From contig CAXXHO010000003.1 of assembly GCA_963667725.2 (NCBI GenBank), positions 448,001 to 512,000 on the forward strand: a stretch of 64,000 bases of DNA, written 5' to 3'. Source of the stretch: Treponemataceae bacterium. Lineage in GTDB: Bacteria; Spirochaetota; Spirochaetia; Treponematales; Rectinemataceae. The notes below the pieces were generated by a model, which was given only the letters and a program-made list of their open reading frames with translations, made no database searches and was not told the DNA's origin. Of the stretch, positions 46,737-61,294 are shown piece by piece (the first letter of the stretch is position 1; every line of letters starts with the position of its first letter). Both the position numbers and the translations under genes were made by a program.

Positions 46737-46785
46737 AAAAGAGAAGGGCAATTCCTTTTATTATAAGGAATTGCCCTTCTCTTTT
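46737..46785 (-). terminator. Long hairpin terminator directly downstream of the tRNA-like att remnant
   Basis: 21-bp arms AAAAGAGAAGGGCAATTCCTT / AAGGAATTGCCCTTCTCTTTT. Confidence 0.8.
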
Positions 46786-46796
46786 AGCCCCTAGGG
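46785..46796 (-). other. Putative att site: duplicated 3' end of a tRNA-Glu
   Basis: Minus strand CCCTAGGGGCTA resembles a tRNA-Glu T-stem/acceptor end (cf. E. coli ...CCCCTAGGGGACG); followed by a terminator; coincides with the GC drop. Confidence 0.55.
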
Positions 46797-53269: not shown

Positions 53270-53575
53270 TTTTTTTCCTTATCTTTGCTGAACTCAAGGC
53301 TATCATGACATTTATATGCTGACAAGAATTTGTTGGTCTTGATAGTCTCATGAAAACCTTAGTCAAGTATGAAGCTTAATATTAGCATGCATCCTTCGCT
53401 CGCAACGGATGCCCCCCTTACCCCCTGAATCCGTAGTGTGGGAGTCAGCCGAAACGCTGCGGTTTACACTAAATAGCCATAGAGATTGCACCCCCCCCTC
53501 CCCATGGGTAAGAAGCTGCAGGAGGCGCCAGTCGACGCGAATGCATCGGCTTCAATCTGCTGTGGTCCGTGTCCT

Positions 53576-53758
53576 TCAGGTCGATATTGTTGGAGTATGC
53601 ACGACGATCCTGTCTTTCTTGGCCATAACGCGCTTCTTCACAGTGGTCACGGCGATCGAGATGAAGCTCCCATCATGAATCTGTATCTCCAGCTTGCCGA
53701 ATCCACGCTTTCGAGCGACTACTCTTAGTTCCTCGATACCCTCGTATTCCGGAGGGAT
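53576..53758 (-). pseudogene. Diverged copy of the 62-aa small ORF, start codon lost (ATC)
   Basis: Translates IPPEYEGIEELR...FGKLEIQIHDG...VTTVKK...KKDRIVVHTP, homologous to 57381-57569. Confidence 0.75.
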
Positions 53759-53965: not shown

Positions 53966-54066
53966 TGGTGCAAAATCTGTGAAAATGGTACATAAATCGA
54001 TTACATGTACCAAAAATAAAAGATATGGTACAAATCCTTGACAAGTGTACCAAATAGATCAATACT
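53966..54066 (+). promoter_or_regulatory. Fic promoter with a 20-bp-periodic operator array
   Basis: TGGT(G/A)CA or TGTACCA at 53966, 53986, 54006, 54026, 54046; TTGACA at 54038. Confidence 0.7.
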
Positions 54067-54073
54067 GGGATAT

Positions 54074-55156
54074 ATGAAGTCCTTTGATCCCAGTAAACCG
54101 TATGATGCCCTTCCTCTTTTACCTCCCGATCGCTCTAGAGTTGAGACTATTGCAGTATTGCGCCAGGAAAATAAGGCTATAGCTGCATTAGCAGAATTAA
54201 AGGGCTTGGCTAATATTATACCTAATCAGTCGATACTGATAAATGCGATTGTGCTTCAAGAAGCTAAAGATAGTTCAGAAATAGAAAACATCATTACGAC
54301 AAAGGATGAATTGTATAAAGCTATTTCTTCAACTACAAAAAAATATGATCCAGCAACAAAAGAAGTAATGTTTTATAGGGAAGCATTATATGAAGGATTT
54401 AAGAAAATAAAAGAAAGAGATCTTTTATCCATGAATGATATTATTACTTTACAGCAAATATTGGTACAAAATAATGCTGGCATAAGGAAGTTACCTGGTA
54501 CTACATTAGCCAATGATAAGACAGGCGAGATTATCTATACGCCTCCTCAGAGTGAAGAAGCTATCAATTCGTTGACGGCCAACTTGGTTAAGTATCTTAA
54601 TGATGGTGAAGTAACCTTAATAAAGATGGCAATTTTGCATTACCAGTTTGAATCGATACATCCTTTTTATGATGGAAATGGAAGAACAGGACGGATAGTA
54701 AATATACTATATTTACTATTAAAGCAGTATTTAGATATACCAATACTTTACCTAAGTTCATATATAATAAAAAATAAGGAATTATATTACAAACTTTTGC
54801 TTGGTGTCACTAAAGATGAGAAATGGGAAGACTGGATTATTTACATATTAAAAGGAGTTGAAGAAACTTCCAGAGAGACTATTGTCAAAATAAAGCAAAT
54901 AAAGAATCTATTAGATAGAACGATAGAGAGAGTAAAAGAACAAGCTCCCAAAATATATTCTAAAGAGCTTGTTGAGACATTATTTGTAAATCCGTATTGT
55001 AAAGTCGAGTTTATAACCAGTTCGATTGGCGTAGAGCGAAAAGCAGCTTCAAGATACCTACATCAGTTAGTAGAAGTTGGAATACTCGAAGAATATAAGG
55101 TTGGAAAAGAAAATATTTTTATTAATAAGGATTTACTGGAAATCCTGAAAAAGTAA
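54074..55156 (+). CDS. Class II Fic-family protein (AMP transferase) with C-terminal HTH
   Basis: HPFYDGNGRTGR catalytic motif; N-terminal inhibitory SSEIEN. Confidence 0.93.
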   Translation: MKSFDPSKPYDALPLLPPDRSRVETIAVLRQENKAIAALAELKGLANIIPNQSILINAIVLQEAKDSSEIENIITTKDELYKAISSTTKKYDPATKEVMFYREALYEGFKKIKERDLLSMNDIITLQQILVQNNAGIRKLPGTTLANDKTGEIIYTPPQSEEAINSLTANLVKYLNDGEVTLIKMAILHYQFESIHPFYDGNGRTGRIVNILYLLLKQYLDIPILYLSSYIIKNKELYYKLLLGVTKDEKWEDWIIYILKGVEETSRETIVKIKQIKNLLDRTIERVKEQAPKIYSKELVETLFVNPYCKVEFITSSIGVERKAASRYLHQLVEVGILEEYKVGKENIFINKDLLEILKK

Positions 55157-55158
55157 AA

Positions 55159-55284
55159 AACATGACACACGCTTCAACCTTATAACGCTCTTTGTCACGC
55201 ATCTTGCGGGAAGAGTTCACAAGATGCGCGCCAATCCCTCGCTTCGCTCGGGAGCGAGTGGTTAAGGTTATGCCAACGATAGAC
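55159..55284 (+). repeat. attC-like integron cassette recombination site
   Basis: Starts 2 bp after the Fic stop; TTCAACCT...GCATCTTG/CAAGATGC...GCGCCAATCCCT...AGGTTATGCCAACGATAGAC imperfect palindrome of spirochaete attC style. Confidence 0.7.
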
Positions 55285-55478
55285 CGATAGCCGCCTTAAA
55301 AAACAGAAAGATTGAAATAACCTCTCCAATATTCAATCAAAATCGAGAAAGCACGATGTTTTTCATATAGCTGTCATTTTTTAAAATTATTTTAAAATAG
55401 GTCTTGTAAAGCATTTTTAATCAATATATCCCTTGTTTTAAGGATATCCCCTACATCTTAACAAAGGAAGTTGATTGT

Positions 55479-56456
55479 ATGAATCAGGAAAAAATCAAAG
55501 AGCTTGAAAAGACGATAAGCAGTGACTACAGCAATATTGCTGGCATTATTGTTCAAAAATGCGGCGTAAAATTATTTGAAAACTACTTTAATGGATATAC
55601 CGCCGATAAGGCCGTTCATATGTATTCGGTGACTAAAAGCGTTATTTCCGCGTTGATCGGTATCGCCATCGATAAAGGTTATATAAAAAGCGTAGACCAA
55701 AAGGTATTGGACTTTTTTCCCGATTACGTTGTCGTAACAGGTGAAAAAACAATACAGCACGTTACGGTCAAAAATCTTCTTACCATGACGGCCCCCTATA
55801 AATATAAGACGGAACCATACGTGGAGTTTTTCGCAAGCCAGAACCCGATTCTAGATGCACTCAATTTATTGGGCGGGGATGGAGTCATCGGGGAATTTAA
55901 TTATTCTGCCATCGGAGGAACCCATATTTTGTCAGGTATCCTTGTGAGGTCGACGGGACAGTCCATACTTGATTTCGCTATGAAAAACTTATTTTCTCCA
56001 CTGGGAATCAACGTTATGCACAATCTGGTGTTGCGTAGTAAAGAAGAACATTTCGCCGTTATGAATGATAAAAACACAAGTGGCTGGGTTGTTGACCCAC
56101 AAGGGATAAACACGGCTAGCTGGGGCCTTTTTTTAACGCCTGCGGATATGACAAAAATTGGTCAATTGTACTTAAATGATGGAACGTGGGGTGGTAACCA
56201 AATTATACCGACCGCGTGGATAAATGAGAGTACAAGAGAACATAGCCGATGCGTCCAATGGGGCAATCTAGCTTATGGCTATCTTTGGTGGATCATTGAC
56301 GGGGATAGCTATGCGGCTCTGGGCGATGGCGGCAATGTTATCTATGTCAATTCAAAGAAAGAAATTATTGTTTCCATCGCTTCGCTTTTCTTGCCAGAGG
56401 CCAAGGATAGAATAGAGTTTATTAAAAAATATATCGAACCAGTTTTTAAGGATTGA
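55479..56456 (+). CDS. Serine hydrolase, class C beta-lactamase-like (6-aminohexanoate-dimer hydrolase-like)
   Basis: SVTK (SxxK), LLTMT, FNYS, YGYLWW, ALGDGG. Confidence 0.88.
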   Translation: MNQEKIKELEKTISSDYSNIAGIIVQKCGVKLFENYFNGYTADKAVHMYSVTKSVISALIGIAIDKGYIKSVDQKVLDFFPDYVVVTGEKTIQHVTVKNLLTMTAPYKYKTEPYVEFFASQNPILDALNLLGGDGVIGEFNYSAIGGTHILSGILVRSTGQSILDFAMKNLFSPLGINVMHNLVLRSKEEHFAVMNDKNTSGWVVDPQGINTASWGLFLTPADMTKIGQLYLNDGTWGGNQIIPTAWINESTREHSRCVQWGNLAYGYLWWIIDGDSYAALGDGGNVIYVNSKKEIIVSIASLFLPEAKDRIEFIKKYIEPVFKD

Positions 56457-56563: not shown

Positions 56564-56650
56564 TTCAACCTGACTCGGCTATTGTCACAGTTTGTGCTTC
56601 TGGGTTATGCCCAGCACAAACTGTGACAATGTACGCCTCACAGGTTAGAT
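56564..56650 (+). repeat. Second, truncated attC-like site
   Basis: TTCAACCTG...CAGGTT outer stem; perfect 18-bp inverted repeat 56581-56598/56613-56630; ends GTTAGAT. Confidence 0.7.
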
Positions 56651-56746
56651 GATGGCTCCTTCATGAATCTGAACCTCCACCTTGTCGAATTCCACGTTTG
56701 CGAGCACCTTTCTCAGTTCCTCGATATCTTCGTATTCCAGGGTCAT
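56645..56746 (-). pseudogene. Truncated copy of the small ORF
   Basis: MTLEYEDIEELRKVLANVEFDKVEVQIHEGAII*, cut at the attC junction. Confidence 0.8.
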
Positions 56747-56948
56747 TGCTGCACCTCCCCGCAACTTGCCACGGGCTAGTTCGTTGGTGAAAAGGTAGGC
56801 GCGGCTGCCGTAAATTAAGGTACTGACATGGTTCGTTTCAATCAATCATCCCTTGTTTCCTCCAGAAAGTATACAAGATTGATACATACTGGAGGAGAAT
56901 GTGATTAAGTTGCATCTTGTGAATATGGAAGAACTCAAAGACTATTAC

Positions 56949-57149: not shown

Positions 57150-57395
57150 ATGGCCAGCTCAAATTCCAAACTCATCGCGGCGTTCACCCAGTCCCCTGTT
57201 ATGCGTTCTCGGGATCTTGTGAAAGCCGGCATTCCTCGCATCGAGCTGTCGCGTGCCCTGGCCGCGGGACAGATTCGGAAGCTTGTTCGTGGGATCTATT
57301 GCCTGAAGGATTACCGACCAAGCGAGCATGGTGATCTCGCCCTCATCATAGGGAAGGCAATAGGTCATCTATGGACTGTACTAGCTTATCTTTGA
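57150..57395 (+). pseudogene. Truncated AbiEi-type (type IV TA) antitoxin N-terminal domain
   Basis: MRSRDLVKAGIPRIELSRALAAGQIRKLVRGIY wHTH signature; no C-terminal domain and no AbiEii toxin. Confidence 0.7.
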
Positions 57396-57569
57396 TGCCG
57401 CTGGAGTATGGACCACGATTCGATCTTTCTTCGGAACAGGCTTCTTCTTTACGGTTGTCACCGTCATCGAGATAATGGCTCCTTCATGAATCTGAACCTC
57501 TACCTTGCCGAATTCAACATTGGCGAGCGCCTTCCTCAGTTCTTCAATATCTTCGTATTCCAGGGTCAT
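57381..57569 (-). CDS. Small protein (YezD/DUF2292-like)
   Basis: FGKVEVQIHEG motif, GAGGAG RBS, three homologous copies in the window. Confidence 0.7.
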   Translation of the reverse strand: MTLEYEDIEELRKALANVEFGKVEVQIHEGAIISMTVTTVKKKPVPKKDRIVVHTPAASKIS

Positions 57570-57596: not shown

Positions 57597-59072
57597 TTAA
57601 TTTGCCAGCAACGAAACCCGCTTCGCTTTACCCAGATTCTGTACGAAACTCGCTAGTTTTCGCGCATTTTCTACCCGTTCTTCTTCGGGTATGTGCTCCT
57701 CATCGAAGGATATCCCCGTGCTCCAACGCTCAGGCGTGGTCCGTGGACTCGTTGATGTTGGAGAGGCTTGCATGAGCGAGAGGATCTCCTGGATGTTCTT
57801 CGTGAAGCTTATGAACGTGAAGGACCACTGTCGTTTCTCAAGAGGCGTCTCTTTCGGCATACGCTTCTGAGCGAACCAGAGTTCCCGCCAGTTCTCGAAG
57901 TAGTAATCCACCGCGCGCTGCGCGAGTGTGTTGTTCTTCCCTAAGGCTTCATAAAGCTCCTTTGCCGCGTGGTTTGCCCGTTCATCAGGAAGGAGCGTGA
58001 TCCCCGTCACTTGATTGTACTTTCTGAACCAATAGCCGGCGATCTTGAATTGGGGGAGTTCCGAAAAGATGATGGGCTCATTTGCCGACGCCCCGCGGGA
58101 TGAAGTCTCTTGGATTGGAGTCTGATCCTCACACGCGCGCGTCTTCTCTTCTTCTGCTTCTTTATATGAGTCTATATATGCAGGCGTGACATCGTGTGAC
58201 ATGTCACAAAACGGGAGGCGTGACGTCACGCGTGACATGTCCGTGACATCGACCGTGACATCGACCGTGACAGGGGGCGTGACATCAGCCGTGACATCGG
58301 GTGTGACATCAGCCGTGACATCGGGTGTGACATCGGATGTGACATTGGCTGTGACATTAGGCGTGACATTAGGCGTGACATTAGGCGTGACATCGGCGGT
58401 TCTTTCTCCCGATGCATCATGATCCTGAGGTTGCGTTCCTGCGAGCGCCTTCCTGCGTTCCCGCTCTCGCCGCTTGCGTTCGAGTGCGGAGGAATCACCA
58501 CCATCGGATGCAAATTGCCGCTTCTCCCATCCATGGATCCGGAACTCGTCCTGCTCGTCCGTCTCAAGCAGACCGGCGCCTTTCAACTGGGTGAGCGCTG
58601 TCTCGACCGCCCCGCCATCCATCCGCAGAAAAAAAGCAAGGTCTTCATTACCAGGCAGATAGCCTTCCCTGCCTTCTTCCTTCACGATGCACAGGAGGTT
58701 GATCCACGTCTTGAACAGGTCGCCGGGGAGCCGTTGTACCTTCGGATCGTTGTACAGCTCGACATACAGGCGAAGCCATCCGTAGGAAGCGCCATTCTGC
58801 CGCTCTTCCCAGTTGTGGATACACCAGGCACCTTCAGGATCGACATCAAGAAGCTTTGCCTCGTGAAGTCTTTCAAGGGCCAGCCTGGCTGCTTCTGGCT
58901 CCTTCCTGAGGTAGTACGCGATATCCTCGAGTGGCGGAAGCCGCCCGCTCGTGTCCTTGTTCTTCGCGATGCACAAGAGGTTTATCCATGTCTTGAACTG
59001 CTCTCCCGATACTCTCTGAACCTTTGGCTTGTTCGGAATATCCGTGTAGAGTCTGAACCATGGCTGTTGCAT
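57597..59072 (-). CDS. Phage-type replication initiator / replisome organiser with duplicated N-terminal domain
   Basis: Two tandem W(F/L)RLY...PKVQR...FKTWINLLC...IH(N/G)WE domains, ERKRRERERRK, internal xxVT repeat region. Confidence 0.78.
   Translation of the reverse strand: MQQPWFRLYTDIPNKPKVQRVSGEQFKTWINLLCIAKNKDTSGRLPPLEDIAYYLRKEPEAARLALERLHEAKLLDVDPEGAWCIHNWEERQNGASYGWLRLYVELYNDPKVQRLPGDLFKTWINLLCIVKEEGREGYLPGNEDLAFFLRMDGGAVETALTQLKGAGLLETDEQDEFRIHGWEKRQFASDGGDSSALERKRRERERRKALAGTQPQDHDASGERTADVTPNVTPNVTPNVTANVTSDVTPDVTADVTPDVTADVTPPVTVDVTVDVTDMSRVTSRLPFCDMSHDVTPAYIDSYKEAEEEKTRACEDQTPIQETSSRGASANEPIIFSELPQFKIAGYWFRKYNQVTGITLLPDERANHAAKELYEALGKNNTLAQRAVDYYFENWRELWFAQKRMPKETPLEKRQWSFTFISFTKNIQEILSLMQASPTSTSPRTTPERWSTGISFDEEHIPEEERVENARKLASFVQNLGKAKRVSLLAN
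58186..58392. repeat. Iteron-like tandem repeat inside rep (putative origin)
   Basis: GTGACA at an exact 12-bp period, 13 copies from 58243 to 58387, plus off-phase copies at 58186, 58196, 58232. Confidence 0.85.
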
Positions 59073-59130
59073 ACGACGCTCCTTCTCTCTTTCCGTTCCT
59101 TCCGTTACCGTCTCCGAAATTGACCCTTGC

Positions 59131-59775
59131 CTACGCCACAGCGGCGATTGCCCCGTTTGAAATCCTTCCCTTGAGCTCACCAATCAACTCGCCAAGTTTC
59201 GCCCCCAAATCCTCGACCGCTGTGTATGCCATGAGTTCGTCCTGGATCACTTCGAGTTTTCCGATGAGTTCCCGGATCCCCTGCGGCACCTGATCACCCT
59301 CTGATTCCCTCGCATCACTTACCGCCGGCACCGGATCGTCATAGGGACGCATCGTCTCGGGTTTTGCCGAAACCGTCTCACGAGGGAAGGGCTGTGGCCC
59401 TGGGAAAGGCTTCTTCGTCTCAGCTCTGCCTGCGTTTGTCTCACCTCTGACTTCGATCCGTACTTTTACAGGCGCCTCGATGACCTGGGGATTGTCCACG
59501 AAGGCCAACACTTCCTGAGGGCCGTGTTTCGTACTCTCCACTTTGACGAGGGAGAAGAGGATCTCCTTCGCCTGGGACTTCCGGTACTCGATGGCCGCGA
59601 CGGTATTGTCCCACTCGAAGCATTTGTGGAGTTCGGAGTTCTTCTTCAAGTACGCTTCCTGAACCAGATCCTTCGGCCGTACCGACGCCCCGCCGATTGT
59701 CAGGATCTCGCGCGCGATCGCCTGAGGGTCCGCCTTCTTCGCTAGGGGGGAGTCCTCTTTCCACTTGTACACCAT
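59131..59775 (-). CDS. Phage protein, putative partner of the Cas7-like gene
   Basis: AAGGAG RBS; motif LHKCFEWDNTVAAIEYRKSQA. Confidence 0.7.
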   Translation of the reverse strand: MVYKWKEDSPLAKKADPQAIAREILTIGGASVRPKDLVQEAYLKKNSELHKCFEWDNTVAAIEYRKSQAKEILFSLVKVESTKHGPQEVLAFVDNPQVIEAPVKVRIEVRGETNAGRAETKKPFPGPQPFPRETVSAKPETMRPYDDPVPAVSDARESEGDQVPQGIRELIGKLEVIQDELMAYTAVEDLGAKLGELIGELKGRISNGAIAAVA

Positions 59776-59787
59776 TCACTACTCCTT

Positions 59788-59921
59788 ACTGTGTTTCCAC
59801 AGTGCCGTCTGATGCCACCTTGCAGGGAGATCCCCTTCAAGGCCATTCTTTGCCGGGCATATGACACGCCCAACCGCGCCTCGCCATGACTAGCAAAACC
59901 TCGCCGGACCAAACCTTTACC
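59788..59921 (-). ncRNA. Candidate guide-like RNA: GGY-NN pentamer tract with 3' hairpin
   Basis: 11 in-phase pentamers at 59861-59915 (8 GGY, 3 one-mismatch variants); GAAA-tetraloop hairpin at 59788-59803. Confidence 0.65.
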
Positions 59922-59927
59922 TATCTG

Positions 59928-60548
59928 CTACTTTGAAGATTCTTCTGTTTTGTTGGCCGACTCGATGGCCACATGGAAACAGCCGAACTGACCATCGCAC
60001 TCCGGTCTCCATTCCCCCACACCGACACCGAATCCCGCCAGGTTGAACAGGTTTACGAGCTGTTCGAGGCTGATCTTGTCCGCGTTGAACCGTACCCGCA
60101 CTGACGTCGTCCATGTCCTGAACTCAGGTCGATAGCGTATGTCGGCGACGCCCATGCCGACGCGGACCGTGTCCTCCCTCATCGAAGGCTCGCCCTCGAT
60201 GGCGACGAGATCGCTTCCGTTCTCTCCATCGATGAAGAAGGATCCCCGGAGCTCCGTCATCTTCATGCCTTCGGCGAACCGTCCGCCGGCGGATACCGCG
60301 GCAGCCTTGAACCCGATAGCGGGGAAGCCATAACGCCCGTCCGGAAGACGGTAGAACGATGCCTGGTATTCCTCTTCCGGATCCTTGGCAACTCGTGCGT
60401 TTTTGGCTTTCTTCATCTGCTTGTCGAGCATGGCTTTCTTAACCTTCTCGCTCCATGCATGGACGATGAGGGGTGTATCCCCGATGATGCGGATCTCGGT
60501 GTATTTGACGTTGATCGGTTTGATTTCGATGACTTCAAGATTTGCCAT
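59928..60548 (-). CDS. Stand-alone Cas7/RAMP-like protein (VIPR-like)
   Basis: IIGDTPLIVH first strand, GFPAIGFKAAAVSAG, RYRPEF, C-terminal G-rich loop AGFGVGVGEWRP...GQFGCF. Confidence 0.7.
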   Translation of the reverse strand: MANLEVIEIKPINVKYTEIRIIGDTPLIVHAWSEKVKKAMLDKQMKKAKNARVAKDPEEEYQASFYRLPDGRYGFPAIGFKAAAVSAGGRFAEGMKMTELRGSFFIDGENGSDLVAIEGEPSMREDTVRVGMGVADIRYRPEFRTWTTSVRVRFNADKISLEQLVNLFNLAGFGVGVGEWRPECDGQFGCFHVAIESANKTEESSK

Positions 60549-61039: not shown

Positions 61040-61294
61040 TCAAAACGGGATATCATCATCGCCAGCTGCGTCAGGAGCTGTGGGTACGGAATTCTCACGA
61101 GGGAACCATGCTTCGATGAAATAGAGCGGGAATTTGCCGCCTTCGACATACTTTTCATTCTTCACGAGCCGGCAGAAAAGCTTCTCCCCTGCAGGCAGAT
61201 TGATACCGATATCGCTCTCGATTTCTCCGGAGACCGAAACGATCTTTACTCCATTCTCTTCTTTCACCTTCTTCCACAGCGATCCTATCCTCAC
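61040..61294 (-). CDS. Small putative ssDNA-binding protein (DUF736-like) with SSB-type tail
   Basis: IGSLWKK N-terminus; acidic DDDIPF C-terminus. Confidence 0.65.
   Translation of the reverse strand: MRIGSLWKKVKEENGVKIVSVSGEIESDIGINLPAGEKLFCRLVKNEKYVEGGKFPLYFIEAWFPRENSVPTAPDAAGDDDIPF

Follow-up and report, generated by a model that had tools for sequence, protein, structure and literature searches.

A single GGY/NN guide of a VIPR locus in a phage-derived element of a Treponemataceae genome, and its probable target in related temperate phages

What is the role of a run of five-base units that lies between two genes of a Treponemataceae genome and in which three bases are nearly constant and two are variable? 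The window, i.e., the whole stretch of DNA analysed, is 64,000 nucleotides long and corresponds to C3:448001-512000 of a genome of 8 contigs (97% complete, 4.22 Mb). A sequence-only reading of this DNA had proposed a non-coding code on the minus strand, with constant GGY and variable NN, and the letters it gave for the pentamers check out exactly. The tract is intergenic. It lies in a gap of 152 nt between the co-directed ORFs 59928-60548 and 59131-59775 and begins 7 nt past the stop codon of the former. The features of this region are as follows.

59928..60548, minus strand: vipr gene (206 aa) with a RAMP/Cas7-like fold, assigned from the match to SUSP1 Vipr and a predicted model
59866..59920, minus strand: putative vrRNA guide of 11 pentamers, 8 with exact GGY and 3 degenerate
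59861..59865, minus strand: unit that closed the sequence-only reading, probably the start of a 3' tail
59131..59775, minus strand: accessory (vap-like) gene, 214 aa, of a family found in 70/97 homologous vipr loci
57597..59183, minus strand: phage replication initiator / replisome organiser (rep), downstream of the VIPR locus

The periodicity was compared with shuffled intergenic DNA, a check that had been suggested together with the proposed code. GGY is exact in 8 of the 11 in-phase pentamers at 59915-59861. None of 5000 dinucleotide shuffles of the 152-nt gap gave 7 or more, and the maximum of 6 was reached once. When the whole genome was scanned on both strands (4.22 Mb), only five start positions had at least 8/11 GGY: two at the present tract and three at C3:1632960-1632970, behind a second vipr gene. 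A score of 6/11 occurs at 43 positions. The period of five is real, but the leading unit, read before as GGT followed by AAA, is better placed in phase as GTA-AA (59920-59916). The closing GTC-AT is indeed in phase, but its NN matches 0/2 bases at the target site described below for the sister element B.

The 206-aa protein has a single sequence match in the PDB, SUSP1 Vipr (36pp_D; E 1.6e-7, and 1.1e-8 with a profile), with homology that is significant over residues 128-200 only. It also matches PHROG 4652 and has 7528 homologues; a Pfam search returned no family. For the predicted model (pLDDT 79), Csm3/Cmr RAMPs were the best folds in both structure searches, and the best RAMP match had a Z of 10.1 and an rmsd of 3.9 over 151 aligned residues. 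According to the accessible part of the structural preprint, SUSP1 Vipr reads GGY with H17, R138, D177, W178, and R179 (10.64898/2026.04.26.720927). H30, R140, and E179-W180-R181 of the present protein align with H17, R138, and D177-W178-R179, respectively, where the stretch around H17 is weak and non-significant and the counterpart of D177 is E179. Among 93 Vipr homologues, H30, R140, W180, and R181 are invariant, and E179 is conserved in at least 90%. Searches of related bacterial genomes found vipr in 0/60 and 0/68 (overlapping sets). Homologues with 40-44% identity are present in Mycobacterium and Gordonia phages, where the phage collection annotates them as hypothetical.

The same arrangement is found in homologous loci. 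A GGY tract of at least 7/11 lies within 1.5 kb on the vipr strand in 88/97 of them and on the opposite strand in 1/97. The entropy by pentamer position is 0.29, 0.71, 1.19, 1.89, and 1.99 bits, i.e., positions 1-3 are constrained and positions 4-5 are free, which is the conservation of GGY and variability of NN that the code had predicted. A few vipr loci (L079, L080, and L033, of which only L033 has full flanks) have no GGY/NN tract of 7/11 within 1.5 kb; they possibly carry other repeat types or are guide-less. As for the accessory protein, it has a proline-rich insertion relative to its relatives. Searches of it against PDB and Pfam gave no family, and an Atlas search gave unnamed viral clusters alone. 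Its single-sequence model was too poor for use (pLDDT 49.5). No CRISPR array or cas genes were found at the locus, and the neighbours are phage early genes.

Because the tract follows a gene that matches Vipr and precedes a conserved accessory gene, we are nearly certain that the locus belongs to VIPR, as described by Yoon et al. 2026 in the accessible parts of two preprints (10.64898/2026.04.26.720920; structure, 10.64898/2026.04.26.720927). The proposed guide code is borne out by the Vipr neighbour, by the constraint on positions 1-3, and by the decoding of NN with a one-base skip. This code is that of the published VIPR system, and the tract is therefore no new kind of thing; period-5 arrays have also been catalogued at scale, according to what is available of a further preprint (10.64898/2026.10.21.760802). 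An Rfam search of both VIPR loci gave no match up to E 5, hence no ribozyme is present at either. A promoter scan returned 1 site where 2.9 were expected.

We decoded the guide by the published one-base-skip rule, in which the NN pairs are codon positions 1-2 and the wobble base is skipped. The units from 59920 to 59866 spell KFPDFYIEAWV. With a skip of 1, the best genomic site is C3:1631536-1631568 with 19/22 matches, and the next has 17. The site is in frame, with the skip on the wobble base, within an 82-aa gene of the sister element B; this gene lies about 770 bp upstream of the second vipr and is the orthologue of gene 61040-61294 of the carrier, element A. A 10-unit guide gave 18/20 in the genome, with 15 as the next score. 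Order-shuffled guides reached 19 in 16/1000 cases, and for the in-genome match alone p is about 0.016, with its location uncounted. Skips of 0 and 2 gave at most 17 in the genome, and a skip of 3 found the tract itself alone. None of these other skips produced a distinct genome match, and their sole 18/22 site, with skip 0 in an L088-type phage, is within the shuffled range (19 in 1000).

The same site is matched in related phages. In 13 loci retrieved with the target gene, the guide scores 17-21/22 there. The 8 de-duplicated relative loci have 21, 20, 20, 18, 18, 18, 18, and 17 matches, and at least 20 was reached in 0/2000 shuffles. These matches are not independent of the first one because the target gene served to find the loci and the guide differs little from the family consensus. 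The score of 21/22 is that of the original guide on L094, where rep lies about 370 bp downstream of the target gene. At the protein level, the database protein P0122 contains the exact 11-residue peptide. Since the first two codon bases are invariable for each of the 11 residues, this peptide determines all 22 bases that are read. Conservation at 9 target sites is 88, 84, and 65% for codon positions 1, 2, and 3, respectively, and 7/10 database homologues of the target match the guide peptide at 8/11 residues or more. Exact-pattern scans of viral contigs with guide A and with guide B gave 0 perfect targets each, and the target gene was found in 0/68 related bacterial genomes. When an 80% threshold is applied to wobble-aligned, non-self targets, element B has 19/22 and the relatives have 20-21/22; self has 17/22. 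Judged from these sequence matches, the target is very probably a small early gene that, in related temperate phages, lies a short distance upstream of the replication gene. The carrier has its own copy of this gene.

61040..61294, minus strand: carrier copy of the targeted gene, 84 aa, with an acidic DDIPF end and a DUF736-like lead
61103..61135, minus strand: self site for the guide, 17/22 (77%), with 4/5 mismatches in three adjacent units

A natural allele of the guide was found in contigs of the environmental runs X5 and X7 (one study). It is about 97% identical, with 75 differences in 2296 bases. Within the tract, over which the list of differences is complete, there are four: one exchanges Y for the other Y, one brings back GGY, one affects the degenerate first unit, and one alters NN. 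The NN change, at 59911 (one contig, X5 only), alters the decoded residue from F to Y. For the X5 guide, the matches are 22/22 with L094, 20/22 with element B, and 16/22 with self. This one change in NN tracks a polymorphic amino acid of the target and bears on how guides are acquired or updated. An alignment of orthologous loci had been named as a check of the code, and for this allele its outcome is favourable, from few events.

The second complete VIPR locus (C3:1632341-1633834; L084:7341-8834) is in the sister element B on the same contig. Its vipr is 88% identical to the first and has its own, different tract. Guide B found nothing above background in its own genome. On the opposite strand, it is compatible at 9/10 positions with LFEILRYAYE, which belongs to a 119-aa early gene of complete phages. 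Shuffles reached this score of 9 in 0/1000 cases in the best of three registers and in 15/1000 and 3/1000 in the others; at the DNA level, the match is 16/20, which 87/1000 shuffles equalled. The copies of the 119-aa gene in A and B have diverged at the guide B site (A, 9/20). The 119-aa early gene of the complete relatives is the likely target of guide B, as far as its sequence indicates.

We consider it highly probable, taking the whole reading together, that the tract is a single vrRNA of a VIPR system aimed at an early gene of related phages and that element A is spared by its divergent allele. By analogy with SUSP1, we infer expression, RNA ends, binding, and silencing along the following lines. 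The vrRNA would be made in the order vipr, vrRNA, vap within the early operon of the integrated, phage-derived element A. Vipr subunits would polymerise on the RNA, one per pentamer, so as to bury GGY and present NN, and NN would pair with DNA while every third base is skipped; both steps are assumed from homology to the SUSP1 mechanism. In this way, the guide would read the first two positions of 11 codons in the small early gene. As the guide has mRNA sense, it would pair with the template strand. Binding would block transcription downstream, i.e., of rep in complete phages and of vipr, vap, and rep in element B. Element A would escape because its own allele of the targeted gene is divergent. 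Whether the guide of element A silences element B itself we regard as an even question, because element B has three mismatches, two of them at the guide 5' end. In the SUSP1 structures, as far as the accessible part of the preprint describes them, the guide 5' end engages last (10.64898/2026.04.26.720927). With its three mismatches, element B may be an escape variant.

Two further features of element A are relevant to the nature of the carriers.

46782..46796, plus strand: weak candidate for the far attachment site, based on one short match, a 15-bp repeat of the 3' end of tRNA-Glu (C3:534201-534215)
53410..53502, minus strand: putative cos-like stretch of about 93 bp, which in complete relatives lies directly before the small-terminase start

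Element A (39.4 kb) extends from an integrase at tRNA-Glu (C3, about 534200) to the 15-bp repeat at window position 46782, and element B (39.8 kb) is bounded by 44-bp tRNA-Pro repeats. Both carry CI-like, excisionase-like, RusA-like, ParB, and replication genes. Among the genes of the relatives, which are temperate phages, are those for HNH, terminase, portal, protease, and an HK97-type capsid. In these relatives, vipr is absent between the target gene and rep, and it was found in 0/6 whole records searched, all of which are incomplete (30-81%). When A and B are examined as satellites, both are integrated and have their own integrase and replication genes and no virion genes. The 93-bp stretch before terS is kept in both although the HNH, terminase, portal, and capsid genes are gone; we take it to be cos from its position and from general knowledge of HK97-type phages. 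It has two copies in the genome (A and B), and in 4/4 viral records with the motif, terS follows immediately. In 3/4 phages, it overlaps the end of the HNH frame.

With less than even confidence, we put forward that A and B are near-phage-sized satellites derived from a temperate phage. They would have given up the virion module in exchange for cargo, some of it integron cassettes, and kept the packaging site. Their complete VIPR systems with single guides would silence the early operon in helper-type phages and, in the case of A, also in a rival satellite in the same cell. Alternatively, A and B may be decayed prophages whose VIPR was aimed at rivals while they were still complete, so that its present effect would be a relic or a host-kept defence against superinfection, with no satellite parasitism. 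This alternative comes fairly close to an even chance. It agrees with the lack of virion genes, which are absent from both elements and were not found elsewhere in the genome (97% complete), and with the published pattern of the P. fulva clade, in which prophages target prophages. Three guide units are also degenerate, one of which is intact in the orthologous allele. Against decay, A and B each retain open frames of vipr and vap, and among the differences listed between vipr and its allele, most leave the protein almost unaltered (P0001, 99% identical). Also, the pre-terminase stretch is kept at 86-90% identity, whereas other DNA shared with the phages is about 70-75% identical. Finally, A and B have different integrases and different tRNA sites, which implies that the virion-less form moved or arose twice.

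The satellite reading can be placed beside known systems. Like the SUSP1 / P. fulva VIPR, the present locus has a Vipr RAMP with GGY-reading residues, one accessory gene, a guide in the range of 9-16 GGY/NN units, a wobble-aligned one-base skip, targets in rival phage elements, and no good self target. It differs in belonging to a distant clade, in having one guide and no array, and in that no SUSP1-type tail was found. In addition, its contig also contains a second element with VIPR, in which a target reaches at least 80%, and virion genes are missing from the carrier. PICIs measure about one third of the helper genome and have a gene set of their own, whereas the present elements span about 39 kb and show gene-for-gene homology with the early region of complete phages. 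From the accessible part of the source, cos-type phage-inducible chromosomal islands (PMC6092414) resemble them in having integrase, regulators, and replication genes, no capsid genes, and a retained packaging-site-like sequence. The F5 satellites with solo vrRNAs, in the accessible part of their description (Lopez et al., 10.64898/2026.10.15.759431), are likewise helper-dependent-looking integrated elements in a VIPR conflict with wobble-aligned targets. However, their guides come without a vipr gene and turn the system of the helper toward REP decoys of the host, whereas the elements here have a whole VIPR system aimed at complete relatives in which no vipr was found.

Prophage-versus-prophage and VIPR-versus-VIPR targeting have already been described (10.64898/2026.04.26.720920). 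In the open literature, we found no account of an element that lacks virion genes and directs a complete VIPR at complete relatives, and such a carrier is possibly a new ecological variant. The locus confirms the wobble-aligned one-base-skip rule in a distant Vipr clade from sequence alone and offers a natural pair of guide and target element in one genome. If A and B were indeed packaged satellites, VIPR would be used by a parasite against its helper, as RNA-guided helper interference. This would reverse the phage-versus-satellite direction given in the accessible parts of the VIPR preprints.

The guide could instead bind the carrier's own copy and damp the early operon, including vipr. We regard such self-regulation as quite improbable, even though the self site is the second-best in the genome, lies in the same operon about 550 bp upstream of vipr, and has seven units, not in one contiguous run, that are fully matched. 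Its score is under the 80% of the published work, and four mismatches are clustered in three adjacent units. Non-self alleles score 19-22, and the guide of the natural allele has shifted away from self and toward non-self. The carrier copy is only 51-55% identical to that of element B, with 76-97% for the neighbouring genes, and it is 83-85% identical to the copies in two other phages. This pattern fits an allele swap and is no proof of self-avoidance. A functionless chance stretch, G-rich or microsatellite-like, has a negligible probability: the genome is GC-rich and reaches 6/11 at many positions, but the shuffles stay below 7, scores of at least 8 are confined to the tracts that follow the two vipr genes, and decoding of the NN pairs yields a phage peptide.

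Downstream of the guide, three elements can be named.

59850..59854, minus strand: GGCAA, which the orthologous allele has as GGCAG; candidate for the GGCAG guide-end motif of the clade, shifted by one base from the phase of the tract
59818..59842, minus strand: predicted 25-nt hairpin from RNA folding; the one change of the allele here, among the differences listed, is in the loop
59788..59803, minus strand: 6-bp hairpin with a GAAA loop just before the ribosome-binding site of the accessory gene, unaltered in the allele among the differences listed

Guide runs in homologous loci end in GGCAG in 292/372 cases. At 59854, the allele has GGCAG in place of GGCAA, so that this motif may be where the single guide ends. 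The closest homologues have runs of 9-12 units whose terminal GGCAG overlaps the next unit, together with the same accessory family, and in this they correspond to the staggered-array VIPR loci of a figure legend (Fig. S18 of 10.64898/2026.04.26.720920). The present locus differs in that hairpins follow its one guide and its GGCAG-like motif is shifted by one base. The sequence-only reading had pointed out the GAAA-loop hairpin as a possible 3' handle or processing site. This hairpin is present, and folding adds the longer one. The GAAA-loop hairpin is not common to the sister locus. The 3' regions of A and B align poorly, and no SUSP1-type conserved tail was found between the two loci. A phase-shifted continuation at about 59804-59854 had been suggested as a second, decayed guide. 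This did not hold up, as only four GGC in two phases (59854/59844 and 59816/59806) and one GGT are present, and the NN pairs have no target beyond the shuffled range. Tried at 59859-59815, this second guide gave 14/18 in relatives and 16/18 in the genome, where 35/200 shuffles had at least 16, and its peptide match of 6/9 equals the mode of the null.

Several further observations were made on the two elements. The replication protein at 57597-59183 has a duplicated N-terminal organiser domain and shares the C-terminal part alone with element B (94%). Within rep, 12-bp GTGACATC repeats run at about 58185-58400 and may be origin iterons. A 62-aa gene has three full or partial copies in the window (57381-57569, 56645-56845, and about 53597-53749), which bracket the cargo from rep to the cos-like stretch. 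Element B has two in the same arrangement, and fragments of this gene precede HNH in complete phages. Low-GC cargo of element A at window positions 54038-56456 includes Fic-domain and beta-lactamase-fold (serine hydrolase) genes. Between CI and the integrase of A, low-GC cargo at C3:524356-532013 (L081-L082) holds a HerA-like ATPase operon, a DUF6602 gene, and a transposase, and may be an anti-phage defence. The cargo in both elements is flanked by attC-like repeats of about 130 bp (window 55148-55283; C3:519651-520792; C3:1636330-1653189). The genome has 201 such copies, of which 130 are at C5:397-550 kb, 37 on C1, and 22 on C7, and the C5 cluster adjoins an integron-type integrase (C5:550880-552109). 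This pattern suggests a large chromosomal integron from which cassettes moved into the elements. The early region of A also contains a tRNA-Ser(CGA)-like gene at C3:515931-516014.
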